Shown in pieces: positions 1,664 through 59,537 of a stretch of 64,000 bases of DNA. Position 1 is the stretch's first letter, and each line of letters begins with the position of its first letter. A program made the translations under genes and the position numbers. The stretch comes from Cyanidioschyzon merolae. Lineage: Eukaryota. Where the stretch lies: NCBI GenBank assembly GCA_000091205.1, contig AP006500.2; one strand, given 5' to 3'. Under the pieces are notes generated by a model that did not search any database, had not been told where the DNA came from, and was given only the letters and a program-made list of their open reading frames with translations.

Positions 1664-3199
1664 ATGACGTTCGTGACGCTACCACTCTGTGCAAGCAGAA
1701 GCGTTGTACCTAGCTTGAAGTGTGCTGCCTGTCGGCGCGGAAGTCGTTTAGGGCTTGGCGGCCGATTAAGGTCGAAGCTGCGTTCCTCCCCTGGCTCGTC
1801 GTCTCTGAGGTGCCTGCAACCTAACGGGACACCTAGTGCAGGGCACCAGGGAAATAAAGCAGGAAATGTGAACACTTTTGGTAAAACTGTTCTTGTTCTT
1901 GGGGGGGATGGATTTTGTGGCTGGCCGACCGCTCTCCATCTGTCAGATCTGGGGTACAGTGTCGTAATTGTCGACAACTTGTCGCGGCGCAAGATCGATA
2001 TCGAGCTGGAGTGCGAGTCCTTGACGCCTATTGCGGCACCGAGCGAGCGCATCGCTGTTTGGAATGCCTTGTCCGATCGCGAGATTCGCTTTGAGTTTAT
2101 GGACGTTGCTCATGAGTACTGGCATTTGTTGGAGCTCATCAAAAGGGAGCAACCCTGCGCTATCGTGCACTTTGCGGAACAGCGGGCTGCACCGTACAGC
2201 ATGAAAGGGAGCCGCCAGAAACGCTATACAGTTGATAACAATGTGAACGGCACCATGAGCGTGCTGACAGCGGTCGTGGAGTCCAACCTGGATATCCATG
2301 TTGTTCACCTGGGCACCATGGGCGTCTACGGCTACGGCTCCAGTGGCGGCAAGATTCCCGAAGGCTACCTCGATGTCGTGCTGCCCTCCGGAGAGCGCCG
2401 CTCGATCCTGCATCCAGCCTACCCGGGGAGTGTCTATCACGCCTCCAAGTGTCTCGATGCGCTGCTGTTTCAGTTCTTTGCAAGGAATGATGGGCTTCGC
2501 ATAACGGATCTGCATCAAGGCGTCGTTTGGGGCACGTTCACCCAGAATACCATGCGCCATGAGCTCTTAATGAATCGTTACGACTACGACTCCGATTACG
2601 GCACCGTGTTGAACCGCTTTTTAATGCAAGCTGCATGTGGGCTGCCTCTTACGGTTTACGGAAGTGGTGGGCAGACTCGAGCCTTTATTCATATTAGCGA
2701 TACGTGCAAGTGTATCGCACTTGCGCTAGCAAATCCGCCTAATCGCGGCGATCGTGTCAAGATCTACAACCAAGTCGCAGAGACACATCGCGTGCGCGAC
2801 CTCGCGGCTCTTGTCGCCCGGAAAACGGGCGCCAGTGTGCACCAAATTCCCAATCCTCGGAACGAGGCCTCCGAGAACGAACTCGATGTGAGCAACCAGA
2901 ATTTTCGTTCGCTTGGCTGGGACCCTGTCACACTGGAGGAGAGTCTGCTCGAGGAGGTGGTTGGTGTCGCGGAAAGATATCGGCATCGCATTCGCCGTGA
3001 CAAGGTCATGCCCAGCAGCTTCTGGAACCGGGAGCGAGAAGAGGCGTGTCGCGCGAATGCGACAAACTCGAGCGACGCACTAGCCGAGATATCGGCTGCG
3101 GCGAGTTCCGAGTGGCGTGATGAGGTGTTAAAGCAGCTGGCCAATGGTGACGACAAGAAACTCGAGCGTATGCGCTCGGCGCTGCGAGATGAACCCTAG
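1664..3199 (+). CDS. SQD1: UDP-sulfoquinovose synthase (SQD1), NAD-dependent epimerase/dehydratase family, with a Ser/Arg-rich N-terminal extension of about 70 aa (putative plastid transit peptide)
   Basis: ATG at 1664, TAG at 3197-3199. Rossmann motif VLVLGGDGFCGWPTALHLSDLGYSVVIVDNLSRRKID. The ORF is collinear with plant and cyanobacterial SQD1/SqdB over its whole length (HLGTMGVYGY, YHASKC catalytic YxxxK, VYGSGGQTRAF). The first ~70 residues have no homologous counterpart and are rich in S, R, L, G. Confidence 0.85.
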   Translation: MTFVTLPLCASRSVVPSLKCAACRRGSRLGLGGRLRSKLRSSPGSSSLRCLQPNGTPSAGHQGNKAGNVNTFGKTVLVLGGDGFCGWPTALHLSDLGYSVVIVDNLSRRKIDIELECESLTPIAAPSERIAVWNALSDREIRFEFMDVAHEYWHLLELIKREQPCAIVHFAEQRAAPYSMKGSRQKRYTVDNNVNGTMSVLTAVVESNLDIHVVHLGTMGVYGYGSSGGKIPEGYLDVVLPSGERRSILHPAYPGSVYHASKCLDALLFQFFARNDGLRITDLHQGVVWGTFTQNTMRHELLMNRYDYDSDYGTVLNRFLMQAACGLPLTVYGSGGQTRAFIHISDTCKCIALALANPPNRGDRVKIYNQVAETHRVRDLAALVARKTGASVHQIPNPRNEASENELDVSNQNFRSLGWDPVTLEESLLEEVVGVAERYRHRIRRDKVMPSSFWNREREEACRANATNSSDALAEISAAASSEWRDEVLKQLANGDDKKLERMRSALRDEP

Positions 3200-4789
3200 A
3201 GCAGTTTACGCAGGTGGCTTGTTACCAAGGTCGCTCCGATCATGCGCTTGCGTGTCGCCAAGCGACGCTAGCAGAAAAGTGCGAATATAGAAACCACATG
3301 ACGTGCGGCCTTCCATTCGGATGAAAACGCTGTCCGAGAGACCGCATCCCAGATATAAGTTGTACCGCAAGGGCTACAAAAAGTAAGTCTAAAGCAACGC
3401 CTGAATCCTGAGACAATAGCATTCGACTCGATCGTTCGCGAAATGGGTATCGCGGACCCATCTGAGCGCATCTACCCAGGACGTGCGGATCCGCACCTGA
3501 GGCCGTCGATGGATAGGATCCACCGTTTAAAGCGCGCTGTTCGCCACGGAAAACCCTACAGCCACCAAGCCAGTTGCCGTGAAGCTCCTCAATGCATCGG
3601 CCAATGCTTCTTCCGACACGGCATTTCCATTGCATGCATATTCAAATCGTACCTGGTACGCGTCTATGTGATCAGCGTATACGTAGCAGCCAGCTGAGAC
3701 GCAGTCGACACCCGCTCCGTTTCCTAAGCTTTCCGAGTAAATATTAAAACTCGTACTGGAAAGAGCCACTGCGCAGACGCAGCCGTCAAGGCGAAGCTCG
3801 CTGATGGAAGCGTCTGTGGAGACATGCGGCATGCCAAGTGCACACGAGTCCCGTTAACCTTTATCAGAAGTGCGTGGGCTTCGTTCCTCAGCGAAGCTGG
3901 TTCAGATACAGGTATTTGAAATAAGATCAGCGCTGAACACTCTGCAGATTGCCAAACCCTAAAAACGCTGTGACACCAAGTACGAAAGAGGCCGCGAACG
4001 TGCCCCACTCGAAAGCACGTCGGGCAAGGCGAAGCTGCGTCTTCCTCGGTTAGAGCAAACGGCGCTTCGGCTCGACACTCGTTCGGCCATAGCGCTGTCC
4101 ACCACGAGCAGCAGAGGCAGCTGCGGTGCAAGGACCGTCGTAGCTGCCACGGAAGTGCTGCAACAGCGCTCACCGAAGCAGCGCACGACTCCGAGTCCGT
4201 CGCGGGGTGGTTCATGAAAACCTGCCCTCGGACTAGGTCTGTCTAGCTACGTACCAACGCCTGTCATGATAGTACGACACCAACTCACATCATCGAAACG
4301 ACAACTCGGGGCAGTATACGCAACACTTGTGGCGCAGTAGAGGCTCGTGTAAAACGGTTTTTAATGCACCTGCTGTTGCCAGCTGTGTCGCCAGCAACTA
4401 AGCTTGCGCTCTGCCGGCTCGCGGGGGTATTTTTGATTACCGGAACATTGACAAGGACACGGAATCCCGCTTTACGTGAGGAAGAGCGGCAATCAAGGAT
4501 CATGCTGCGTATCTTTCTATCAACGGAATGTTTGCAATGACGCGGAATACCTGGTCGCGCGATGGACACCGGTCTCCGGGAAAACCATCCAAAACGCCAC
4601 ACCATACCGGCAAGTTCCAGTGGGCAATACCCTCGCTTCCCGTTAGTCATTCTGGTCACTTGCGACCGATCCACCGCAGGCGCTTTCTCGTCGACGCAAT
4701 GAACAATGCTGCTGCTGCCTTGCACGCGAAGCCGGGCGACTCGAATTGCACACTATCGCTGCAGGCAACGCATCCGTTGGAGCTCCGCA

Positions 4790-5455
4790 TGCAGATACCA
4801 GTATGAAGAGGCGCGAAAAGTCATTCCAGGAACCGGCCTTGAATACCCGAACATCCACCATACCAGAATGAAGAGGCACGAAAAGTCAGAATGGTAGTGT
4901 GCCCTATGTACCCGAACATCCACCACACCAGATTGAAGAGGCACGAAAAGTCAGAATGGTTATGTGCACTACGCACCCGAACATCCACCATACCAGTATG
5001 AAGAGGCACGAAAAGTCATTCCAGGAACCGGCCTTGAATACCCGAACATCCACCATACCAGAATGAAGAGGCACGAAAAGTCAGAATGGTTATGTGCACT
5101 ACGCACCCGAACATCCACCATACCAGTATGAAGAGGCACGAAAAGTCATTCCAGGAACCGGCCTTGAATACCCGAACATCCACCGATACCAGAGTGAAGA
5201 GGCACGAAAAGTCAGAATGGTTATGTGCACTACGCACCCGAACATCCACCATACCAGTATGAAGAGGCACGAAAAGTCATTCCAGGAACCGGCCTTGAAT
5301 ACCCGAACATCCACCGATACCAGAGTGAAGAGGCACGAAAAGTCAGAATGGTTATGTGCACTACGCACCCGAACATCCACCATACCAGTATGAAGAGGCA
5401 CGAAAAGTCATTCCAGGAACCGGCCTTGAATACCCGAACATCCACCGATACCGAA
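4790..5455. repeat. Tandem array with higher-order structure: 130-131 bp unit made of two alternating 65-66 bp subunits sharing the core atgaagaggcacgaaaagtca, about 10 subunits, ending at the G6PD start codon
   Basis: Direct reading: ccagtatgaagaggcacgaaaagtcattccaggaaccggccttgaatacccgaacatccaccatac alternates with cagaatgaagaggcacgaaaagtcagaatggttatgtgcactacgcacccgaacatccaccatac. The 131-bp unit starts at about 4993, 5123, 5254 and 5384, with a variant copy from about 4798. Confidence 0.9.
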
Positions 5456-7369
5456 ATGCAGCGCGACGCGTCCAGGAAAAAATCGCGGCGATATCGAGGC
5501 ATCCGTTGCGTACAAGCAGGTGGAGGTCGCTCTCCAGGAACGATGTTCGTAGCTTTACCAAGTGTGCTGTTCACCAGCAAACCCTCAAGGATACGTACTG
5601 TTAAGATTGAAAAGCGTAGAACGTTATTTGCCTGCGACAGGGCGAAAGCAGGCACCGATGGGAACGCTAGCAACGCTGCGGCGTCAGCACCGAAACCCTC
5701 TGCTGCGAGCAGCGGGCGATCTGCTGGTACTGCAGCTCGAGACCAGGTAACGATCAGTGCCCAGACGAGTTCGTCAAACTCGCGGACGATAGATCGAAGC
5801 ACCGATTCATCGCAAACAGTACAGGTTGCGTCCATGTTTGACTCGATGACGAAGCGCCGTGAGGCTGCTCGCCGCGAGGCGCTGAGCATCGTCGTGCTGG
5901 GCGCGTCCGGGGATCTGGCCCGCAAGAAGACGCTCCCGGCGCTTTTCTCACTCTACTACCACGATCTGCTGCCGAGCGACTTTTATGTGGTCGGCTACGC
6001 ACGATCAAACATGACGAGCGAGGCGTTCCGGAACACGATCAAGTCAAGTTTGACCTGCCGCGTTATCGAAGGCCCCGAGTGCGCACGCAAAATGGAGCAT
6101 TTCCTCTCGCGTTGTTTCTACGTTTCCGGAACTTATCATGAAACTACTGCATTCCGAACGCTGGACGAGTTTCTCGTGAACGAGTTTGAGAAAGAGCGCT
6201 GGAATCGCGGGGTTCCGACCAATCGCCTCTACTACTTGGCGATTCCTTCCAACGTCTTCGCTGAGGCCTGTCGCGGCATCGCCCATGCCCACACCAAGCC
6301 TCCGGAGTCGACCAAGGGCTGGATGCGGGTCGTCTTGGAGAAACCGTTCGGGAGAGATCTGGATACCTTCCAGACCCTGCACCAGGAACTGCAATTGTAC
6401 ATTAGCGAGGAACAAACCTTCCGCATTGACCATTACTTGGGCAAGGAGCTCGTTCAGAACGTGCTGGCGCTGCGCTTTGCGAATTATTTTTTGGAGCCTC
6501 TCTGGAACAACCAACACATCCAATCTATCCAGGTGACGTTCAAGGAGAACTTTGGTGTCGAGGGACGCGCTGGCTACTTTGACCAGTACGGAATCATCCG
6601 CGACATCATGCAGAATCACCTGCTGCAAATGGTGGCGCTCTTTACGATGGAACAGCCGGCTTCTTTGAACGCCGAAGATATTCGTGACGAGAAAGTGAAA
6701 GTCTTGCGCAGTTTGGAAACGCTACGTGCTACAGATTTCGTCATCGGGCAGTATATGGGGTATCGGGAGGAAGACGGCGTTCGTCCGGGCTCCAAGACGC
6801 CTACGTTTGCAGCGTGTCGGATGAACATTCGAAACCGACGCTGGGACGGTGTACCGATCCTGGTCAAAGCGGGGAAGCATTTGGATGAACGCCTCGCGGA
6901 AGTGCGTGTCACGTTCCGCAGTGTGCCTGGTAGTATTTTCTCGCTTGCGAATACCCTGCCGAACAATGAGCTTGTTGTTCGCGTTCAGCCCGACGAAGCC
7001 ATTTATCTTCGCATCGTCAGCAAATCCCCGGGGTTGACCTCTCGCCTAGAAGAGGCGCGTCTGACGCTATTCTACCGGACGGCCTGGGAAGAAGCGCACG
7101 ACATTCCCGATGCCTACGAGCGCCTCATCTTGGACGTCATCTATGGTGACAAATCGCTCTTCATACGAAGCGATGAATTAAAAGTCGCCTGGGAGAAGTT
7201 TACGCCGGCGCTTCACGAACTCGAGCAGAGCGACCGCTATCGACCGGTACCGTACGTAGCGGGCAGTCGCGGCCCTGCCGAAGCCGACTACCTTGCCGCG
7301 CGCTACGGATGCGTTTGGGCCAGCGACCTTGACATTGGCGGCAAGCGACTGCAAAGCAAGGTGCCGTAA
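5456..7369 (+). CDS. G6PD: Glucose-6-phosphate 1-dehydrogenase, plastidic redox-regulated type (C-x7-C regulatory cysteine pair), with an N-terminal presequence
   Basis: The track ORF 5225-7369 runs back through the tandem repeat, so I take the first ATG after the repeat (5456, MQRDAS) as the start; ATGs at 5543 (MFVALPSVLF) and 5834 (MFDSM) are alternatives. Dinucleotide-binding motif VVLGASGDLARKKTLPALF, active-site RIDHYLGKE, EKPFGRD. LTCRVIEGPECARKMEHFLSRCFY matches the thioredoxin-regulated cysteine pair of plant plastidic G6PD (LTCRIDKRENCGxKMEQFLKRCFY). TAA at 7367-7369. Confidence 0.85.
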   Translation: MQRDASRKKSRRYRGIRCVQAGGGRSPGTMFVALPSVLFTSKPSRIRTVKIEKRRTLFACDRAKAGTDGNASNAAASAPKPSAASSGRSAGTAARDQVTISAQTSSSNSRTIDRSTDSSQTVQVASMFDSMTKRREAARREALSIVVLGASGDLARKKTLPALFSLYYHDLLPSDFYVVGYARSNMTSEAFRNTIKSSLTCRVIEGPECARKMEHFLSRCFYVSGTYHETTAFRTLDEFLVNEFEKERWNRGVPTNRLYYLAIPSNVFAEACRGIAHAHTKPPESTKGWMRVVLEKPFGRDLDTFQTLHQELQLYISEEQTFRIDHYLGKELVQNVLALRFANYFLEPLWNNQHIQSIQVTFKENFGVEGRAGYFDQYGIIRDIMQNHLLQMVALFTMEQPASLNAEDIRDEKVKVLRSLETLRATDFVIGQYMGYREEDGVRPGSKTPTFAACRMNIRNRRWDGVPILVKAGKHLDERLAEVRVTFRSVPGSIFSLANTLPNNELVVRVQPDEAIYLRIVSKSPGLTSRLEEARLTLFYRTAWEEAHDIPDAYERLILDVIYGDKSLFIRSDELKVAWEKFTPALHELEQSDRYRPVPYVAGSRGPAEADYLAARYGCVWASDLDIGGKRLQSKVP

Positions 7370-7973: not shown

Positions 7974-9527
7974 TCAAGCAGGTTTGAAGAATGCCCGAGC
8001 GAGCTGGCGGCGCAGCCAGCGCAGCCACGAGAGCGATCGCGGCAAGCCGAGGCCTCCAAGTGCTCGGAAACGAAAATTGTTCATCGCTCGATTGTACTGC
8101 ACATTGCGGATCCAGGCGGTTGCAGCACACCAACTCCAGCGCTCCGCCTCGCGACGAGCAGCGTCGCCCATCCGTTTGCGCATGACGGCATCGCCGAGTA
8201 GGGCACATACATAGGTTGCAGCCTCGCTGGTGTTGCCCTTGGTGTACAGAAATCCTGTCTCGCCGTGAACAATCAGATCGGGGATACCGCCAGCTGCTGT
8301 GGCAACTACAGGCACACCCGATGCCATGGCCTCCAGTACCACAAACCCAAGGGTTTCGCTCTCTGAGGGCATCACAAATACGTCGGCACAGGCGAATGCT
8401 CGCGATAAATCATCGCCGTGTAGTTGTCCGGTCATGACCACGGGCAGACCTGCGAAATGTCGCCGTACCGTCTCGGCGTACGGTCCGTCACCGACGAAAG
8501 CGAGTCGCGTTCCGGGTGGACAACAGGTGAGGATCCGCTTCAAACTCAGCAGATTCTTCTCGGCACCGAGTCGCCCGATGTAAACCAGCAGCGGCGCGGT
8601 AGGATGGCCATCTGTGAGCCGCGCCCGCATCGCACCACCATCATCGTTGCGGAAACGCGGATGGAAGCGCTCCGTGTTGATGCCTTTTCGCCAGAGGTCC
8701 ACGCGCTCGATGCCGTGTTGTCGAAGTTCTGCGCATATCTGTGGAGACGTCGCCAGCGTCAGGTCTGCGCGATTCAAACAGAAACGCATGAGTGTCCACG
8801 CCAGTCCTATGAGAATCCCTAACCCATAAGTTTTCGCATACATTGGTAGATGTGTGTGATACGATGCAACAAGTGGCTTGCGCAGAACACGCGCCATGAG
8901 AAGGATGGCAAATACCAGGAATCCGGGTGTTGCCAAGTGGATGAGGTCAGGATCGAACTCGCGAACGCGCTGCAGCAAACTGCGCCTTCCGAAAACCATG
9001 CCACTACCAAAGCCGATTGAGAGCGTAATGCGTGGATAGAGTGCAAACTTGAAACCCCGGATGGTTATAACCGGATAACCGAACACTTCTTGCGGTGCGT
9101 CCGGCGAGTTATCGGGGGTTATGATCAATACCTCGTCGCCGGCCTCTTTCAAATACCGTAATAGCTCATTAAAACGATTCGAATACCCGGACACGTGCGT
9201 GAACGGCGTCGGTTCAACCACGAGACACACTCGACGCCGAGGCGCGCGCCGCAGGTCAACGAGGTTCGGGTCATCGCCCGACGTCGGCTGCGGGTACACG
9301 GGACCAGTGGCGACACTCGCCAGTGCGAACGCGCAGCTCGTCCGCGGTACACCCGGTGCCCGCAGCCGGACTGGCGCATAGCGTCGCCTCAAGAGAGCAA
9401 CCTCTAAGGGACACAGCTGCGAGCCGTTTGATGGCGCGCTCTGCCGCCTCAACGTCCGCGCGCACGCGAAAGCGCCAGTGTCCCCGTTGTTAACGCCCAG
9501 GAATGCCGCTGTTCGACCAGTGAACAT
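7974..9527 (-). CDS. SQD2: Sulfoquinovosyldiacylglycerol synthase (SQD2), GT4 glycosyltransferase, with an N-terminal presequence of about 95 aa
   Basis: ATG at 9527 (reverse complement of cat at 9525-9527). Strong collinear identity to plant SQD2: VVEPTPFTHVSGYSNRFNELLRYLKEAGDEV, DLIHLATPGFLVFAILLMAR, SYHTHLPMYA, FVGDGPY, ADVFVMPSESETLGFVVLEAMASGVPVVATAAGGIPDL, and the GT4 EX7E region. The N-terminus is Arg/Ala/Pro-rich. Confidence 0.85.
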   Translation of the reverse strand: MFTGRTAAFLGVNNGDTGAFACARTLRRQSAPSNGSQLCPLEVALLRRRYAPVRLRAPGVPRTSCAFALASVATGPVYPQPTSGDDPNLVDLRRAPRRRVCLVVEPTPFTHVSGYSNRFNELLRYLKEAGDEVLIITPDNSPDAPQEVFGYPVITIRGFKFALYPRITLSIGFGSGMVFGRRSLLQRVREFDPDLIHLATPGFLVFAILLMARVLRKPLVASYHTHLPMYAKTYGLGILIGLAWTLMRFCLNRADLTLATSPQICAELRQHGIERVDLWRKGINTERFHPRFRNDDGGAMRARLTDGHPTAPLLVYIGRLGAEKNLLSLKRILTCCPPGTRLAFVGDGPYAETVRRHFAGLPVVMTGQLHGDDLSRAFACADVFVMPSESETLGFVVLEAMASGVPVVATAAGGIPDLIVHGETGFLYTKGNTSEAATYVCALLGDAVMRKRMGDAARREAERWSWCAATAWIRNVQYNRAMNNFRFRALGGLGLPRSLSWLRWLRRQLARAFFKPA

Positions 9528-10199
9528 TCACCGCCACCAACACCAACACCAGCTGAAGCAACGATACCAACAACAGTTCTATAGTCTGCACGAGAGCGAC
9601 TCTACCTGTCTGTAGCCTCCTTGTGTTGAAGGGTACGCGTTAGCGCCCGTTGGGCCGCCACCGCATCGGCAACGCGCCCCAAGCGTGAGGGCTTGTCCAG
9701 CGAATTACATGCCCACAACACCGCGGCTGCAGGCGATGCGCATCGAATCTTGCTGCCGATGCGCTGTCATATTTTGTTCGATAACGAAATTCGTTTATAT
9801 CGACGCTGGATCCTAGATTGCGGGATGGGTATTCGTAATCGCAAAAGCATCCATTATGATGCAGTTACCCCCAAGTTCCATTATTCGTACTTCATTTCGG
9901 ATATGCTGGTCGGTTTGCACGTTCAGTCGTGCACCTAACCTGCCCTGATCGTCCGCGATAGCGCCTATACCGCTGGAGCAGATCTTTCATAGAGGCAGAG
10001 CGGCGTTGCGATTCCACTGAGGGTAATGGCTCGAGGCGCGGCTCACCGTACACGGAATCGGAGTAGCGAATCATTCTGGGCGCCTGCGAGCCGCGCAGAG
10101 AGACGTACTTTCTGCGACAGCGCGAAGCGATATACTAAGAGTCCACCGCTACCGAGGCGACACCAAGACGCAGCCTAACTGCCCCTAATCCCAGAACAA

Positions 10200-12119
10200 A
10201 CTGCGTTACGGACGAGTTGCTCAGATTTGGCCACAACATAGGGAAACGGAGCGATAGCCTGGCATGCTCGTCCGACTCGTGGGGCCTTCCGTCTAAAAGG
10301 TAAACTTTCGACAATACCGAAATCTTTTCCCCTTTTTGACGTTTATCGTAGATGGTAAAAGGAATTTTTTATCGTTGCAAGTGAGTGGTTAGTCTCTGTC
10401 CTTTGTTCTACATAGTGCGGTCGATACGCGTACCTCCATATCTAGCAGGCATGAGATACGACGTGCATCTTGTCGCTACAGGGAATAGCGACCCTCACCG
10501 TTATCGTATTGATGGAATATACAAGTTGCATTTGCGTAACAGCCGTACCAAAATGCAAGGTTTCCATTCAGTTGTGTTTCAACCCTCAAGTCAGTGTACT
10601 CATGTGATTTTTTTCCGGTTTATATCAGAAGCGTTCAAAGTGCGTTCTTTTTCAGAAAGAAATAAGAAAGGAAAGTTGTCGAAATGGAAGTGGAGGATCC
10701 CGAAGGCCCTGGGTCACCACCTGGCAGAAAAAACGAAAAAAAGTGCCGCGCGAAGAGGAACAGGAGAATACCAAGGAGCGAACATGGACGCCCCACGTCA
10801 CAAGCTGTCTGAATCGAGAACTCGAACGCAAGGCGGAGATGGAGCTGGGTGTCGAAAAAATGAAGAGTCCGTGGAACGGAAGACTGCGCTTCTCGGGAAG
10901 CGATTCGACGCCGTTCCGTGATATGCAACATCAAGTGGCACTCTGCGACCATCGACTCCAGTGTCCGTCATGGCATTATGAGGGAGACCAGCTCCGAGTT
11001 CGATGTAAGCAACAAGGAATTCACAGGTGAAAACCGGGAGACGTACTGGAAGTATATCGTAGACTTGAAACGTCTCGAAACGGGCAAGAAAAGGCATCCA
11101 CGGAGACGATCGAAACCGATGGTGTAGCCATGTGTGTACGCTATCGGCGGTCGAAGGCAGATCGTCCTGGTCCGCCTTCGATATCGCCCTCGGGGAAGCA
11201 TGAAGAAAAGGAAATGGCAGATCCTAGGATGCAGGAGGTGCAGGAGAGCGACTTTGTTGTTGGCGCGGACCCTGGGGCTACGAACATCGTAACCATCGCA
11301 GTACCCAAGCGTGCGGAAAATGGCATTCGCGGCAACTTGCATCAGAAAGATATGCGTATTTTGAGGTTCTCGAGAGCGAGATACTATCGAGAATCGGGAA
11401 TCATGAATACGAGGAAGAAAATCGAGACATGGAATGCAGGAATGAATGAGCACCAGGAAGCTATGAGCCAGGTGACGAGCCGAGGAGCGGACTGTCGAGC
11501 TTTTCGGGAGTTCATGGAAGTTCGTGTTGCCCATTGGGATGCGCTGTGGGAGGAGTATACCAAGCCCCGGTGGGCTCGTTTGCGTATGAATCTATACGGT
11601 GGGAAGCAGCGGGCCTTTACGAATTCTTTCAATCAGTTGAGTGCCCTGAAGGAGGATGAGAGTCAGGGGCTCGTAGTAGCGTACGGGGCAGGGCGATGGA
11701 AGACCCAAAAAGGGACTACGCCAGCTCCAACGACGAGAACGTGTAAGGAGTGCGCACGGCGTTTTGTTACAATACCGATAGATGAGTTCCGAACGTCCTA
11801 TACACACCATGAGCTGGGGTGTACGCTTCAGAGAGTGGAGATGGAAAAGCGCCAAAGGAGTCCTGAGGAAATCGCAAAGTACGGACCGCTGACGGAGGAG
11901 CAAATGGAAAGGAGAGCGAAAGTTCGAGGATTGCTTGCATTAGTAAGTACAACCAACGATGGCAAGAAACGTATGGAGTTTGTGAACCGAGAATTCAATG
12001 CCGCTATGAATATCAGGAGATGTGCGCTGTTGGAGAATAGACCTCCGGAGTCGACAAGAGGGAACTTGTTGGACAACCTCTCAAAGTGGAACTATATGAG
12101 AAAAAATTGGAAGAAGTAG
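10200..12119 (+). mobile_element. AT-richer island carrying a TnpB/Fanzor-like (OrfB_Zn_ribbon, RuvC-fold) transposon-associated nuclease gene; upstream part fragmented across three reading frames (introns or decay)
   Basis: Composition drops visibly (about 48-50% GC against about 60% in flanks) from about 10.2 to 12.1 kb. Adjacent ORFs in three + frames (10385-10921, 10743-11030, 10918-11127) precede the main ORF 11130-12119. The main ORF carries the RuvC-I GxDxG motif ([12 protein letters not shown]), a zinc ribbon (TCKEC...HHELGC) and a RuvC-III-like NAAxNI motif ([13 protein letters not shown]). Confidence 0.5.
11130..12119 (+). CDS. TnpB/Fanzor-like RuvC nuclease homolog (C-terminal RuvC-I, Zn-ribbon and RuvC-III segment); the canonical catalytic Asp of RuvC-III is replaced (DRDxNAAxNI becomes [10 protein letters not shown]), so it is possibly inactive or domesticated
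   Basis: ATG at 11130. Motifs [67 protein letters not shown]. Basic C-terminal tail. The stop TAG at 12117-12119 is followed in the same frame by a 457-codon ORF. Confidence 0.45.
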
Positions 12120-13493
12120 TTGGTGGCCCGTCGAGAAAGACGGGGAGGCGTCCGCACACCAGTTGGCGACGCTATATCTAACACGCGTTCGCCGCCACTA
12201 CTGTACACCGCTGGCGACTGCTTGCGACCTTTGAAAAGCTTTCGGTCGACACGAAACACCCCTAAAAGGCGATACCGTACATCCCTAAGCAACTCGATAA
12301 AAGATTTGCAACCTCCCAGCGCACGCATGCTTCGGTACAGCTTCATTAACGCCGTCTGGCCGTCCAAGTCATGCGGCAGGGTCCACGTTGAGCGCCATCG
12401 AAAGCAGAAGACACAGTCTGTACAAACTGCACAGCGCTGGAAACTGCGGGCGAACTTGAACCGGCGAGGTCCAGACTCAGCGACCTGGGATCGGCAGGGC
12501 GGTGGCCAGGCGGAGCGCCTGCTTATGGAGCAGGTACTGCAACTGAGGCGAGAGTTAGATGCCTTGCGAGCGGAGAATGAGAGTTTGCGTAAATATCGTG
12601 TCAACGAGCACCTGCTCGTGGATGCCGACGACTCTGTCACAACCGAGGACGGACGGACGCGTTGCGGCAAGCACGGGGAGCGCTCGCGCTATTTACCGGT
12701 CTATTCAGTCGCCCCTGAAGAGGTTCTAAGCCGCGTCATCCCCGTCATTGGACCTAACCCAACGATCGAGCAACTCGACGCAGCAATCACGCTGTCGTTC
12801 CAAGTACGCGATGAGCTGGTGAACCGACGTGGGCTCGAGCGTTACGAGGATGTCATGGCTGGTCGATTCCTCGTGTTCCAGACCAGTGAACTACCTGTCA
12901 AGGGGGTCCAGAGAGTCGCCCTTCCTGGTACGGTAGGATCGATGCGCTGGGCGTCGGCACCAGTTGGTATCCTGATGCCTGCCTCCGAGCTGGGACTGGA
13001 GTCCTTCTACCCGAACGCTCCGACGGATGTCAACTGTCTTGTCATTATCGAGGCTGATTTCGATTCAGAGATCCCCGCGGATACCCTGGCATCACCTGAC
13101 ATCATTCGCGACATCCGAGACGGTACCAAAGACGTGCTCGACCGTATCGAAAACGTTTGGTTCGACGAGCAAGGCCGCGCGTCTCGCGATGCCGGCTTTC
13201 CGAGCTCGCTCACTGAAGAGACAGAAACCGACGAGGACGAGCAACCAGACGAAAACGGTGACGGACCGGAATTCAGTCCGGGGAAATTTTACCTCTGGCT
13301 GGAGGAGAGGCCTCCGCAGGGCGTCGAGTCCGGCGAGGAGCCAGCCCACAGGTGGCACGTTCGCTGGTATGAGCGTCGTCCAGACCCCGCGGTTGACGGT
13401 GTGGAATGCGTTGGCCGCGTGATTACCGTGATAGCACCGAGCGCTTCAAGGCGTCGCACCAAGACGTTTGCCGAAGAGGACGATGTGTTCTAA
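12120..13493 (+). CDS. Hypothetical protein (coiled-coil segment LMEQVLQLRRELDALRAENESLRKY, acidic DE-rich C-terminal region). It is in the same frame as the upstream TnpB-like ORF; the first in-frame ATG is at 12327
   Basis: A 1374-nt stop-free frame at about 60% GC is far longer than chance allows. No recognisable domain. The track start is a TTG; ATG at 12327 (SARMLRYSF). Confidence 0.4.
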   Translation: MVARRERRGGVRTPVGDAISNTRSPPLLYTAGDCLRPLKSFRSTRNTPKRRYRTSLSNSIKDLQPPSARMLRYSFINAVWPSKSCGRVHVERHRKQKTQSVQTAQRWKLRANLNRRGPDSATWDRQGGGQAERLLMEQVLQLRRELDALRAENESLRKYRVNEHLLVDADDSVTTEDGRTRCGKHGERSRYLPVYSVAPEEVLSRVIPVIGPNPTIEQLDAAITLSFQVRDELVNRRGLERYEDVMAGRFLVFQTSELPVKGVQRVALPGTVGSMRWASAPVGILMPASELGLESFYPNAPTDVNCLVIIEADFDSEIPADTLASPDIIRDIRDGTKDVLDRIENVWFDEQGRASRDAGFPSSLTEETETDEDEQPDENGDGPEFSPGKFYLWLEERPPQGVESGEEPAHRWHVRWYERRPDPAVDGVECVGRVITVIAPSASRRRTKTFAEEDDVF

Positions 13494-28457: not shown

Positions 28458-28599
28458 CACGTCCGTCAATGAACAAGCACGTGTTCGTTAGAGCAACGAA
28501 GCAGTATGGACACGTGCGTGGTGTGTGCCCCGTGATCGCTACGCTTTTTCGACGCAAAGCCGCAACGACCTGCTCCAGGCGAGCGGCGAACGCCCCAGA

Positions 28600-29810
28600 C
28601 GTACAGTGCTGGTGCGAGACGCCCGGAGCGTTCCATGCGGTGGGAAACGTCCCCGCCGCCTCCTCCTCCTCCTCGTGCACACAACCGACACCGCCAAAGC
28701 ACAAAGCGTGAAACGTGATCACTGGTACGGAATAGCGTCAACACTGGGTGCTTGTTCATGGATGGGCTATGGACGGTGGTCCCGGGCAGTGCCGTGCGGT
28801 GGGAAACGTCCCCGCCGCCTCCTCCTCCTCCTCGTGCACACAACCGACACCGCCAAAGCACAAAGCGTGAAACGTGATCACTGGTACGGAATAGCGTCAA
28901 CACTGGGTGCTTGTTCATGGATGGGTTATGGACGGTGGTCCCGGGCAGTGCCGTGCGGTGGGAAACGTCCCCGCCGCCTCCTCCTCATCCTCCTCCTCCT
29001 CCTCGTGCACACAACCGACACCGCCAAAGCACAAAGCGTGAAACGTGATCACTGGTACGGAATAGCGTCAACACTGGGTGCTTGTTCATGGATGGGCTAT
29101 GGACGGTGGTCCCGGGCAGTGCCGTGCGGTGGGAAACGTCCCCGCCGCCTCCTCCTCATCCTCCTCCTCCTCCTCCTCGTGCACACAACCGACACCGCCA
29201 AAGCACAAAGCGTGAAACGTGATCACTGCTACGGAACAGCGTCAACACTGGGTGCTTGTTCATGGATGGGTTATGGACGGTGGTCCCGGGCAGTGCCGTG
29301 CGGTGGGAAACGTCCCCGCCGCCTCCTCCTCATCCTCCTCCTCCTCCTCGTGCACACAACCGACACCGCCAAAGCACAAAGCGTGAAACGTGATCACTGG
29401 TACGGAACAGCGTCAACACTGGGTGCTTGTTCATGGATGGGTTATGGACGGTGGTCCCGGGCAGTGCCGTGCGGTGGGAAACGTCCCCGCCGCCTCCTCC
29501 TCATCCTTCTCCTCCGCCTCGTGCACGCAACCGACACCGCCAAAGCACAAAGCGTGAAACATGATCACTGGTACGGAACAGCGTCAACACTGGGTGCTTG
29601 TTCATGGATGGGTTATGGACGGTGGTCCCGGGCAGTGCCGTGCGGTGGGAAACGTCCCCGCCGCCTCCTCCTCATCCTCCTCCTCCGCCTCGTGCACACA
29701 ACCGACACCGCCAAAGCACAAAGCGTGAAACGTGATCACTGGTACGGAATAGCGTCAACACTGGGTGCTTGTTCATGGATGGGTTATGGACGGTGGTCCG
29801 GGTGCAAACC
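28600..29810. repeat. Tandem minisatellite, about 7 copies of a 159-174 bp unit containing a variable (CCT)n tract, immediately upstream (about 140 bp) of the RRM-protein start codon
   Basis: The unit ggtggtcccgggcagtgccgtgcggtgggaaacgtccccgccgcc(tcc)n tcgtgcacacaaccgacaccgccaaagcacaaagcgtgaaacgtgatcactggtacggaatagcgtcaacactgggtgcttgttcatggatgggttatggac recurs with period 159, 159, 171, 174, 170, 172 bp. The track ORFs 28525-29901 (+) and 28466-28918 (-) are translations of this repeat. Confidence 0.9.
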
Positions 29811-30679
29811 TGCTTGGCGGGTACCAACTTGGTCGTGGTTTACGCGTGTGACAAGCGTACCCGAAGCGCGTATCGTCATGAATGGATTTCGTGCTTGGTA
29901 GGCTGCGGACTGGATGCAAAGCTGCTCGATGCAGTGTAGCAGCGGAGTCGATGTTGGATAGCAGCAGTGTTTGGTTGACGTGCATCACTGGGGTTGCGTG
30001 AGTGAGGCATCAGGAATCACGTTATAGAAAAAGATGTATGTCAACGATGAGCACTCAGGGCATGATCGCGGGGGAGTCGAGGTCGCATCATCCGGCATCC
30101 GCAACGATCGAAAATGATGTTGCTTCCCTGCTGTTGGCGGCTATGTGTTCGGTACCAGGTATTGTGTTCGGGTGCAATACGCAACGTCCATCGCTCAACA
30201 AACATGAAGGATAAGTAGCATGGCGGAGGAGTTTCAGAGGAGCGCGGATCCCTGGACCGGTTGCGCTGCTCGCGCTCGGTAAATGTTTCCGATCCTGTTC
30301 TCGGCGAATAGGATCGATATTCAGAGAGCAGTAGTACAGGATTCGGGACACTAGGTCGACTTTTTGAAACGGCTGGTTCGGCGAGTTGCCGCTGCAATTC
30401 ATCAAGTCACTGAAATCAAGATGAATTGTGATGTCGGCGAACACCGGTGCCGCAAAGTAATCCATTTCGCGATCCAATGCATACGTACATGCCTCCACTA
30501 GTCCCATTTGCTTACACGCAGCACGCTGGAATCATGCGCTCTTCAACTTGTCGATCTTTCTGTTCTAAAAAAACTCCCGGGTGTAGTGATTCGCGTGGCT
30601 GGGTCCCCGGGCTCAGAAACTCAACGTCGTGCCTTGACGACTTTATATACAACTCCGGCCGAAATATCACTGAAACGCT

Positions 30680-34816: not shown

Positions 34817-36189
34817 GGTAGCCTTTAACTCCGATGGTGCTGCGAAGATGAACTCGCTGGGTGACTTGGATCGTTCCCCAGGCCGGTTATACTGCGTTTT
34901 AACGTGCAGTCGATAGCACGGCTGCTCGGGAGCGAGGAGTCCGCGCTCTCAGTTGCCTGACGTCAGCGTAGGAGTGCTTAACGCTGAGCTTCAAGACCGT
35001 TGTCTGCAGAACCTCGTTTGGTTTCTGGCTTTCTCAGTCTGTGGAGAGAACTTGCACAGAATCGTCGGCCCCAACGCAGTGAACGTTACCTATTGAGTGC
35101 GTCGAGGCACATGGGCAACTCGCGAGTCGAAACGGTGCGCCGCCTCAATGGCGAACGCCAGCCACGCGCAGGTACCAGTCCGGTGCTACTGGGTGCTGTG
35201 TGCACCCTCTCGACAGGCCTCGTGTTTACCGCGAGTGCAGCCGTTGGCATCGCTGGGAATAACGTCAACGACGGCTTCGAAGCTTCTCTCATGCACGATA
35301 GAGTTTCCTAGTGTTTTTTAGTCAACGGAGCAGCGCCAGACAAGTTTCGTAGCAACGGTGCGTAACTGCCTGCTCGCTGAGTCGCATCGGCAGAGGCTGT
35401 GTTGCTGGGTTTTGGGTGTTGGAAAAGTTTGTTCGGATGGCAACTGGATCATCACCTAAATTCTGCGTTCGGTAGCCTCTCTGGTCCGTATGGGAAATGG
35501 CAGGCGGTTATCGTGGAGAGATCTCGGGGGGTGTGAAGGCATCCAAACGTGATATTTTTCTGCTTTCACAGCAATGAGGGAACGAGCGGCATCGTGAAAA
35601 CACTGCAACTGGGGTGTAGATTGCCCCGAGCACCGTCACTGCCGCTACAGGTCATTTCCATGCCCGAACAAGATAAGAGCTGCACTAGCACGAGGTGACG
35701 AGCTCAGCGAGCGTCTTCGCATGAGCATCGGAAACTCCGGAAACCAACGACGACGTTGAGCATGCCCTCATAGGTCCAGCGGCATGCATCGCCGCATCAA
35801 CGCATAACTGCGGAAAACAGGAAGAGAGCGAAAATCCGCAGCCTGCGTGATTTGCGCATGCTCCACGTAAGGAAACAACAAACGCGGCGACGTTTACGTC
35901 GTCCTTCGATCACGATATCGGTTCGTGAAGGAACGATGGTTCGAGCACGTTGCGACTCTTCGGGAATACGCTGACGAAACGAATACCAGCGGCATTGCGT
36001 CGAATGATCCACTCCGAAAAGACGACCGTGATTCCTCCAACTTCATACCCCATCCGCAAGCACGTATAGTTGCACTTGGTATGAGGATTCTGCAGATCTA
36101 TTCAAAGTTTGGAACCAGCCGCAAAGCAAGAACGAAGCGAGCACTACCATAGCCCATAGAGACGGGACACCGCCAGAGATCATAGCACA

Positions 36190-36520
36190 CCGGGCGACAC
36201 AATGCATCCATCGATGAATGCCGGGAAGTATCGTCCAATAATATTCATTATTGACGCAATTTTCGAAGCAACCCGACACAATGCATCCATCGATGAATGC
36301 CGGGAAGTATCGTCCAATAATATTCATTATTGACCCAATTTTCGAAGCAACCCGACACGATGCATCCATCGATGAATGCAAGGAAGTATCGTCCAATGAT
36401 ATTCATTATTGACCCAATTTTCGAAGCAACCCGACACGATGCATCCATCGATGAATGCCGGGAAGTATCGTCCAATAATATTCATTATTGACCCAATTTT
36501 CGAAGCAATCCCCTGCGGGA
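36190..36520. repeat. Tandem array, 4 copies of an 81-bp AT-richer unit containing two near-palindromes, about 150 bp upstream of the NusG-like ATG
   Basis: Unit gacacRatgcatccatcgatgaatgccgggaagtatcgtccaataatattcattattgacccaattttcgaagcaaccc repeated from about 36193, 36276, 36356 and 36437. Near-palindromes: gcatccatcgatgaatgc and aataatattcattatt. Confidence 0.9.
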
Positions 36521-36667
36521 CACGTTTCCATCCAGCGCCGCCTCTGAGCGCGTCGCGGCGCTTTCTCAAGCGCTATCCCGGTCGCGTTCGCGTTGCTGGA
36601 ATATGCGGAGCAACGCTCATACCGACTAGACGCTGGACTGCATACCGCTCGAGCTGGTACCGCTACT

Positions 36668-53104: not shown

Positions 53105-53830
53105 CATCATTAAGGTCATCATCACCATCATCATCAGCGATGCCTCTGTTATGATATACATCATACTACATTGATAATCATCATCTTCATCATCATCGTC
53201 AGCGATGCCTCTCATATTCCATACATCATTATACATTGATAAGCATCATTATGGTCATCATCATCATCTTCTTCTTCTTCATCAGCGATGCCTCTCATAT
53301 TCCATACATCATCATACATTGATAAGCATCATTATGGTCATCATCATCATCTTCATCTTCTTCTTCTTCTTCGTCCGCGACGCCTCTCATATTCCATACA
53401 TCATTATACATTGATAAGCATCATAATCGTCGTCGTTAACATCATCATCATCATCTTCTTCTTCATCAGCGATGCCTCTCATACTCCATACATCATCATA
53501 CATTGATAAGCATCATTATGGTCATCATCATCTTCTTCTTCTTCTTCGTCCGCGATCCTCTCATATTCCATACATCATCATACATTGATAATCATCATAA
53601 TCGTCGTCGTTAACATCATCATCATCATCTTCTTCTTCATCAGCGATGCCTCTCATATTCCATACATCATCATACATTGATAAGCATCATTATGGTCATC
53701 ATCATCATCATCTTCTTCTTCTTCTTCTTCGTCCGCGACGCCTCTCATATTCCATACATCATTATACATTGATAAGCATCATTATCGTCGTCGTTAACAT
53801 CATCATCTTCTTCTTCTTCAGCGATAACCG
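53105..53830. repeat. Tandem array of about 8-9 units (about 80-100 bp), each = (CAT)n/(CTT)n microsatellite + agcgatgcctctcatattccatacatcatYatacattgataagcatcatta; each unit carries a GATA-type motif (TGATAAG); the array ends about 200 bp upstream of the S2P protease ATG
   Basis: Direct reading. agcgatgcctct recurs at about 53126, 53200, 53283, 53369 (variant), 53463, 53539, 53643 and 53733. Track ORFs in this interval (MPLIFHTS...HHHH) are translations of the repeat. Confidence 0.88.
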
Positions 53831-54037
53831 TTGCTACAGCGCCAAAGCAGCGTGTGCGGCAGGCGCGCCGCGCACCCCCAACGTGAAGATCGACTGCCTC
53901 CGACGTCGCCGACTCACGGTTTTCAGTACCAAGCAGAGGTCGTGAGCGTCTCCTGAGGCGTGTGCAATTCTTGAGTGCTTGTTTCCATTCGTCCCTCGAA
54001 AATCTATCGATTTGAGTAGGTTCCGGATCCAGACTAT

Positions 54038-57886: not shown

Positions 57887-59537
57887 GAACGCGATGCCTC
57901 GGCACCAGGTGTGTCGCCTGTACGGAAGCAGCGCGACCACGGCGCTGGTGTGTGTGTGTGTGAACGCGTGCTGGCCCCCAGGCCGTACAGCAACTCGCCA
58001 CGGCACGCCAGTTCTGCCCAGAAACAGCCCGAGCACAAGAGTCTACGCTTTCTATCGCCGGGGTCTTCCTGCAAACGCTCCGCACGGAACGCTGAACCAA
58101 TGTAGGTCGTGCATCCGCAGCCGAGAAATGTGCGGGGAAATGGGTGTGCGTCAGCAGCTGCGACCGTGCCCCGGACCTCCAGCATCGCTCTATTCATTTC
58201 TACTCTGAAAGAGAAGAACTGTAAAGGATATCGTTTATCGAGATCGGGACTCGTTTCGTATAGAACCTGCGACGCGAACTGCGTACTCGGTATGCCACCC
58301 GCTTCATGGAGCACACCTGGGCCTTCTGCGTAGCACCACACGTACAAGAGCACAGAGCAAGGCGCCACTTGTGATGAATGCTGGGATGCAATCAGTCCGA
58401 ACGCTCAAATGATGACGGCAGCTGCTCGCGTCGAATTCCAGGAATCAGACGTGAAGGAGAAGATGATGACCGTCCATTTCGCTGCAGAGGAAGCGTCCGC
58501 GCTCGACACCGTGCAGGGATGCGTTCTGGGGCGCATTCGAGAGCGCAGCAGCTACCGATGTGCAGCTATCACTCGCGATAGAAACGTTTCATATCCTGGG
58601 AGGGTATGTATATACCCACTCGGAGACGACTCCCAGCCTTTCTTGACTGGCCACCATCAACCGGTTTCGGTTCATCAAGGCACACTTCGAGGGTTAGGGA
58701 CTGCCTCACAAAGTTGGATCGTGGCAGCTCCGCGGATGTCGACTTCAACACCATACACGTTCTGATATTCATGGCGGCATAAAGTCTCGGTTCACGGACT
58801 CCATGCGTTTGTTGCCTCTACTCAAACTCACCATTGCTAGGATTCCTCAAATACGTGTCCTTTGAGCCACTAGAATCCCGTCATCGTCCTGTCGGGCAAA
58901 CAACACTCCTCTTCTATCTCCGCTCTTCGACCTCTTCTTCATACCTAGATCGTCGTCGCGCCCTATAGTCGGCGAGTAGAGGATTTTATCGTTTTGTTTT
59001 ATACCATCCGACGATAACGTGTCTCCGGGATCCTCGACCTGCATATCCATGACTTTCCCCTGTGTTTTTATGTCCTCAAATCAACGCTCTTCGAAAACGC
59101 CTGCTATGAACCGAGGAAAAGCATTTCGGTGACACGCACCTTGGAATTGGAACGCAATTGAGATGAAATGCCATGATATACAGGTTTATACAGGATTGAT
59201 GAACCCAGTTGCTTCTGCTGGGAAACGCAGGTGCTCGACGAGACGTCATCGCCACCTGAAGACAACGTCATTTTTCAAAAACTAGGCTCCAGTTTGGGCA
59301 GACGCATTATTTCAACAGGACTTGTGTGCGCTTGGGAGTAGACGGAACGCTTTCGAGCACTTGGGACGGGAGCGCTTTACGGGTGCGTCCGAGGTCATAC
59401 TTCCAGTCGTGCGCGTCGCTACGAAGCAGGCGAGCGCTTGGCGGCAGGAGTCTTCGTGGAGGTGGTGCTTCGTCTCGAATAATCTCGAGACTACAAAGAC
59501 GTTAATACGCTGGTTTGAACCTGGACAGCTCCAACTC

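Follow-up and report, generated by a model that had tools for sequence, protein, structure and literature searches.

What does it mean when two long open reading frames (ORFs) follow each other in the same frame with only one stop codon between them? This question is raised by a locus in the nuclear DNA of Cyanidioschyzon merolae 10D, a red alga (eukaryote), examined here within a window of 64,000 nucleotides, to which all positions refer (plus strand unless indicated otherwise). A first ORF of 329 codons (11130-12119) starts with ATG and ends with a TAG at 12117-12119, and a second one of 457 codons (12120-13493) begins at the very next codon. Both are 0 mod 3, so that together they span 2364 nt of one frame, with this TAG as their sole separator. 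A preliminary description of the locus had called the upstream ORF TnpB-like and had considered four explanations for the shared frame, namely two genes in phase by chance, a fusion or domestication later broken by a nonsense mutation, a sequencing error, and stop-codon read-through. The sequence facts it relied upon were confirmed, as the coordinates and the phase are correct, the ORF list contains no in-frame ATG from 12120 until 12327, and the GC content is higher downstream (0.568 at 12001-13000 vs 0.518 at 11001-12000). The first of these explanations is almost certainly the right one. The two ORFs belong to unrelated units, a dead copy of the transposon CMe-1A and the host gene CMR017C, which lie side by side and share a frame by accident.

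Fanzor1 proteins are eukaryotic homologues of the RNA-guided nuclease TnpB. The single Fanzor1 family described in C. merolae is CMe-1A, with a consensus of 3169 bp and one ORF encoding a Fanzor1 protein of 734 aa (Bao & Jurka 2013, Mob DNA 4:12, PMC3627910). About 150 copies were reported, each sharing approximately 80% identity with the consensus and devoid of terminal inverted repeats; only some of them retain intact ORFs, and the decay of the family is slow (Bao & Jurka, PMC3627910). Using the consensus provided in Additional file 2 of that paper, a defective copy of 2462 bp was delimited by blastn at 9779..12240. Consensus positions 1-1037 correspond to 9779-10807 with 78.5% identity, and positions 1736-3168 correspond to 10808-12239 with 86.3% identity. 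Similarity to about 80 other copies begins near 9771-9823 and ends at 12208-12248. At the protein level, residues 1-314 of the ORF at 11130-12119 align by blastp with residues 385-698 of the consensus Fanzor1 with 85% identity. Judged from its sequence, this ORF is what remains open, in its longest piece, of a defective CMe-1A copy.

Homologues of the upstream ORF are numerous in hot-spring metagenomes, where more than 230 were found with 54-94% identity, including many longer ones (up to 569 aa as called); one locus of the same family (L082) displays an open frame of 778 codons. Pfam gave no match for the ORF and nothing significant for full-length homologues, the models PF07282 and PF01385 remaining below the gathering threshold (best PF07282 values of E=0.15 for protein P0002 and 0.0023 for the distant relative P0140). 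When the PDB was searched with a shallow profile restricted to the family (A1), just a spurious low-complexity match and nothing relevant was obtained. A deeper profile (A3), built from the family and its distant relatives after a search of the representative library had yielded 1427 proteins at E<=0.001, matches the solved Fanzor1 structures of Parasitella parasitica (9cf0, E=1.7e-18), Spizellomyces punctatus (8gkh, 9.8e-11), and Guillardia theta (9cer, 2.6e-5). The profile alignment extends across the WED/RuvC region, and the motifs shared with the family are xDPGRxN (RuvC-I), DEFRTS, and NRD-NAA-N (RuvC-III). Bacterial TnpB and Cas12f are more distant than Fanzor1, and no CxxC…CxxC zinc ribbon is apparent from the consensus of the family. 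The term TnpB-like is thus appropriate in the Fanzor1 sense, that of a eukaryotic TnpB homologue missed by Pfam.

The window copy is heavily damaged. An internal deletion of 698 bp (consensus 1038-1735, junction at 10807..10808), affecting a region retained by the full-length copy L001, removes approximately codons 45-277 of 734 and shifts the frame. Six frameshifting indels are also present in the ORF (-A near 10727, -G near 10785, -A near 10854, +GA at 10920-21, -C near 11088, and -T at 12064/65), and the coding remnants are spread over three frames. With this deletion and these indels, the copy lacks an intact ORF of about 734 codons. The ATG at 11130 is no true start, as it corresponds to the internal Met of TDGVAMCV. 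The RuvC-I segment with its DPG motif is present; RuvC-III reads NREFNAA in the window vs NRDFNAA in both the consensus and the near-identical locus L053, an Asp to Glu change. On sequence grounds, this copy is dead and cannot encode an active enzyme. This first unit (9779-12240) is a CMe-1A copy that lost 698 bp of its N-terminal coding region and gained the six indels, and the 329-codon ORF is the longest stretch left open, between those near 11088 and at 12064/65.

The last of these indels accounts for the TAG. At 12064..12065, one T of AAC TTT GTT is deleted (giving AAC TTG TT), which moves the reading from frame 2 to frame 3. This T is present in the consensus (position 2994), in every other aligned copy, and in two loci, L053 and L051, each obtained from a separate metagenome and approximately 98.6% identical to window positions 9000-13000. 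After the deletion, the final 15 codons of the ORF at 11130-12119 are out of the native frame and meaningless, and reading in frame 3 is first stopped by the TAG at 12117..12119, which overlaps two native Val codons (GTA|GTT). Indeed, where frame 2 of the window spans this site, the family reads KKLEAVVGGRS, and the AGTAGT string that gives rise to the TAG is found in most other copies. The native C-terminal tail of the Fanzor1 protein lies in frame 2 at 12062..12181, with 81% identity to consensus residues 698-734. It ends with a TAA at 12179-12181 that aligns with the consensus stop, is the sole stop in the consensus-aligned codons, and is out of phase with CMR017C. The TAG appears as a single in-frame stop, therefore, because of a frameshift in a pseudogene. 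In its native frame, the protein would be extended by 38 residues up to this TAA, whereas the wrong frame would be followed for 15 codons only before the TAG is reached. An independent CMe-1A copy (L045:1760-3541) shows a similar frame shift near its C-terminus, which indicates that such deletions arise naturally in the family. The short T run at 12064/65 seems prone to one-base deletions.

As the decisive lesion is a single base, an error in the 10D reference sequence, either at the TAG or at the missing T, has to be weighed. The missing T lies within a short T run (TTT reduced to TT) and both L051 and L053 possess it, which speaks for such an error. However, the TAG itself is no error since AGTAGT occurs in most other copies, and the shift in L045 shows natural deletions in the family. 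Moreover, if the T is restored, the remnant is read in frame 2 up to the TAA of 12179-12181 and is no longer in phase with the second ORF, so that an error at this position would erase the observation it was called upon to explain. A sequencing or assembly error is thus very unlikely and, for the TAG resulting from the GTA|GTT overlap, unneeded.

The two near-identical loci were also informative as to the history of the copy. In L051, where the T is present, a frame of 383 codons stays open as far as the native stop. In L053, the tail ORF (4160-4762) is in frame 2 and CMR017C, with an ATG at 4908 inferred by coordinate offset from the window, is in frame 0, hence out of phase. L053 has in addition a nonsense change of its own (TGG to TGA, window position 11537); at the site of the TAG, it has TAC, followed by TAG one codon later. 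The lesions thus differ between the window and L053; the copy was therefore already defective before the strains diverged and is decaying independently in each of them. A cluster of differences was noticed around the TAG, as window positions 12020-12200 differ from L053:4600-4781 and L051:4600-4773 by 12-18 nucleotides in about 180 nt, and the TAG triplet differs among the three sequences. In this segment, neither the window nor the L053 version is closer to any sampled copy than to each other. Gene conversion from unsampled copies or a mosaic metagenome assembly could explain this cluster.

Beyond the TAG, the stretch without stop and without ATG (12120..12326, 69 codons) is itself composite. 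Its first part (12120-12240) is the 3' end of CMe-1A, made of the ORF tail in the other frame and of 59 nt of 3' terminal sequence, and the remaining 86 nt (12241-12326) are the leader or intergenic stretch of CMR017C. The whole of 12120-12326 shows no similarity to the sequence located upstream of CMR017C orthologs. No match for an omega-RNA-like element was obtained from Rfam at the 3' end of the element. Folding of the last 300 nt of 20 copies by RNAalifold gave a covariation term of +0.48 kcal/mol with a double change in 3 of 28 pairs, these copies being perhaps too similar for covariation to be seen.

The second unit (12327-13493) is CYME_CMR017C, annotated as a hypothetical protein of 388 aa; positions 12327-13490 are 100% identical to the NCBI protein. 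Its ATG sits 86 nt past the end of the CMe-1A element. The N-terminus of CMR017C is variable and followed by a coiled coil near residues 60-94, whereas a C-terminal region is conserved among Cyanidiophyceae-type sequences. The four orthologs (P0122-P0125) display identities of 62%, 66%, 35%, and 30%. The start Met is kept in three lineages, as MLRYSF in 10D, MLNCSF in P0122, and MRPCGF in the more distant relative L002, and in the L004 ortholog a stop stands one codon before the ATG. CMR017C is a conserved host gene that starts at this conserved ATG of its own and appears to be restricted to Cyanidiophyceae-type sequences. No Pfam or PDB relative of CMR017C was found, a repeat homology search with the ortholog alignment gave no further relatives, and the literature search returned no paper mentioning the gene. 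The AlphaFold2 model is poor (mean pLDDT of 47), only the long helix at 60-94 being reasonably confident. Motifs invariant in CMR017C and its orthologs include GxHG, EVLxRxxPV, GRFLxF, QRVALP, ASAP, GKFYLW, and DGxExxGR.

A further comparison is provided by L002, an 88-kb contig. As established by tblastx and by Pfam analysis of the called genes, it carries G6PD, GT4 (-), the CMR017C ortholog (+), and TOR, arranged as they are in the window, where the GT4 glycosyltransferase gene recognized by Pfam occupies 7974-9527 on the minus strand. No similarity to Fanzor was found in L002. As this locus is syntenic but free of the element, the CMe-1A copy represents an insertion, specific to one lineage, that separates GT4 from CMR017C. 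The comparison of orthologous loci, which had been proposed as a way to find an intact fusion, therefore yielded none, the two units being out of phase in L053, the frame ending at the native stop in L051, and the element being absent from L002.

These data bear directly on the idea of a former fusion or domestication, according to which a host-like coiled-coil and acidic domain was appended to a TnpB-like nuclease and later separated from it by a nonsense mutation at 12117-12119. Such a fusion would account for the shared frame and for the lack of an ATG before 12327, which are the only features in its favor. However, the TAG did not result from the substitution of a native sense codon, as it lies outside the frame of the nuclease and arises only after the deletion at 12064/65, and the native stop (TAA 12179-12181) is intact in the other frame. 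In addition, no protein of the family and no stop-to-stop ORF in the 84 loci continues into a CMR017C-like sequence, the CMR017C orthologs start at the same Met, one of them with a stop one codon upstream, and the syntenic L002 has the gene without the element. A broken fusion is thus extremely improbable. As for a programmed read-through of the TAG leading to a long Fanzor-CMR017C protein, for which nothing speaks beyond the shared frame, it is likewise extremely improbable given that the upstream ORF is a pseudogene, truncated at the N-terminus and with several frameshifts, which has left its native frame 15 codons before its end, that the 69 codons past the TAG contain no conserved coding sequence, being transposon 3' end and unconserved leader, that the position of the TAG varies among near-identical loci (TAC in L053), and that neither an Rfam element nor a structure supported by covariation was found.

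If the dead CMe-1A copy and CMR017C are merely adjacent, the open stretch between them has to be compatible with chance. The per-codon stop frequency is 0.025 over the whole window and its six frames. From this value, the probability of 69 open codons is 0.175 by a geometric estimate, and shuffling the 207-nt stretch itself gave 0.079. Stop-to-stop intervals of at least 69 codons represent 15% of all those of the window, and at least 69 open codons precede the first ATG in 4 of its 18 long ORFs. Even the CMR017C ortholog of L002, where the transposon is absent, is preceded by 82 open codons before its ATG. The 69-codon gap is therefore statistically unremarkable, with stops absent from frame 3 by chance in DNA of 56% GC. 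Multiplying the open stretch by the phase probability of 1/3, the coincidence amounts to approximately 3-6%. The composite frame separated by the TAG is such a coincidence and has no biological meaning.

Some observations weigh against the view of two accidentally in-phase units. First, a remnant of 329 codons is fairly long for a pseudogene; this length is offset by the proportion of long stop-to-stop intervals in the window mentioned above (~15% of at least 69 codons) and by the slow decay of the family (Bao & Jurka). Second, the L051 and L053 sequences, which contain a repeated element, were assembled from metagenomes and show the local cluster of differences at 12020-12200, where their assembly may be mosaic. 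The argument drawn from the family consensus and from the other independent copies does not depend on these two loci. Third, the separate 5' ends of the two units are a point that we infer. Likewise, the remnant ORF and the junction are presumably not translated as such.

Both components of the locus had already been described, CMe-1A in 2013 and CMR017C when the genome was annotated. The result is mainly a negative one, in that the 2.36-kb composite frame should be neither annotated nor pursued as a fused nuclease, a gene subject to read-through, or a TnpB that was domesticated, and the junction adds nothing new on Fanzor biology. It illustrates a general trap of compact, GC-rich genomes, in which frameshifted transposon pseudogenes may continue in phase into adjacent genes, and what looks like a 'single in-frame stop' may be a triplet that lies out of frame in the ancestral coding sequence.

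The closest known system is CMe-1A itself, from the same organism, with 78-86% nucleotide identity to the consensus over both ends, and the CMe-1 protein, with 85% aa identity over residues 385-698 and 81% over residues 698-734. The divergence of the window copy fits the published value of about 80% identity per CMe-1A copy and the absence of terminal inverted repeats (PMC3627910). It differs from the published element by the 698-bp deletion, the six frameshifting indels, and the Asp to Glu change in RuvC-III.

The preliminary description had also drawn an analogy to TnpB-derived regulators of bacteria. Such domesticated regulators are typically intact, conserved, single-copy genes in fixed synteny. 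So described, they share with the upstream ORF only the ancestry of the nuclease fold, whereas the ORF is a decaying remnant of a multi-copy transposon and is absent from the syntenic L002. The analogy is inapplicable to a decaying transposon copy in a eukaryotic nuclear genome. A domesticated TnpB or Fanzor derivative was considered at this locus and rejected, the copy being broken differently in the window (12064/65) and in L053 (TGA at 11537) and missing from L002.

The insertion sites of CMe-1A copies display a compositional bias. The 5' flank is T/pyrimidine-rich over about 7 nt (8-12 of the 14 distinct flanks have T), and the 3' flank begins with TT(T)G(T), with T in 22/23 and 20/23 cases. 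Examples of such junctions are found in the window (9764-9778 / 12241-12255) and in L006, L022, L048, and L077. These T-rich junctions may reflect a target-site preference or a short duplication, which the original description was unable to establish, or a true 3' end located 4-6 nt past that of the consensus. It is conceivable, although rather unlikely, that the 3' end of CMe-1A, 86 nt 5' of the CMR017C start, was recruited in the C. merolae lineage to serve this gene as its promoter or 5' leader, and/or that the T-rich junctions represent the target-site rule of this Fanzor1 element.

Within the Fanzor1 family, acidic repeats of about 22 aa (K-x-EEKKEA-x-PA-x-QEV-x-DND-x-VV) stand directly before RuvC-I in numbers varying from 1 to approximately 6 (P0001, P0006-P0008, P0015, and P0022), with one repeat in the window copy (11190-11260) as in the published consensus. 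A second and far more degraded Fanzor1 fragment, corresponding to the C-terminal part, is located at 58614-58942 on the minus strand; tblastn gave 36-59% identity over two frames, and blastn aligned it with consensus positions 2889-2998 at 75%.

Elsewhere, and in keeping with its red-algal nuclear origin, the window holds very long ORFs and CAG-type repeats, together with four tandem-repeat arrays (53107-53908, 28622-29804, 4730-5475, and 36116-36589). The units of 92 nt at 53.1-53.9 kb are included in a kilobase of low GC content (0.43) and marked GC skew (-0.35). Repeat units of 171 nt are nested inside the ORF at 28525-29901, and the further arrays are made of units of 65 nt and 79 nt.

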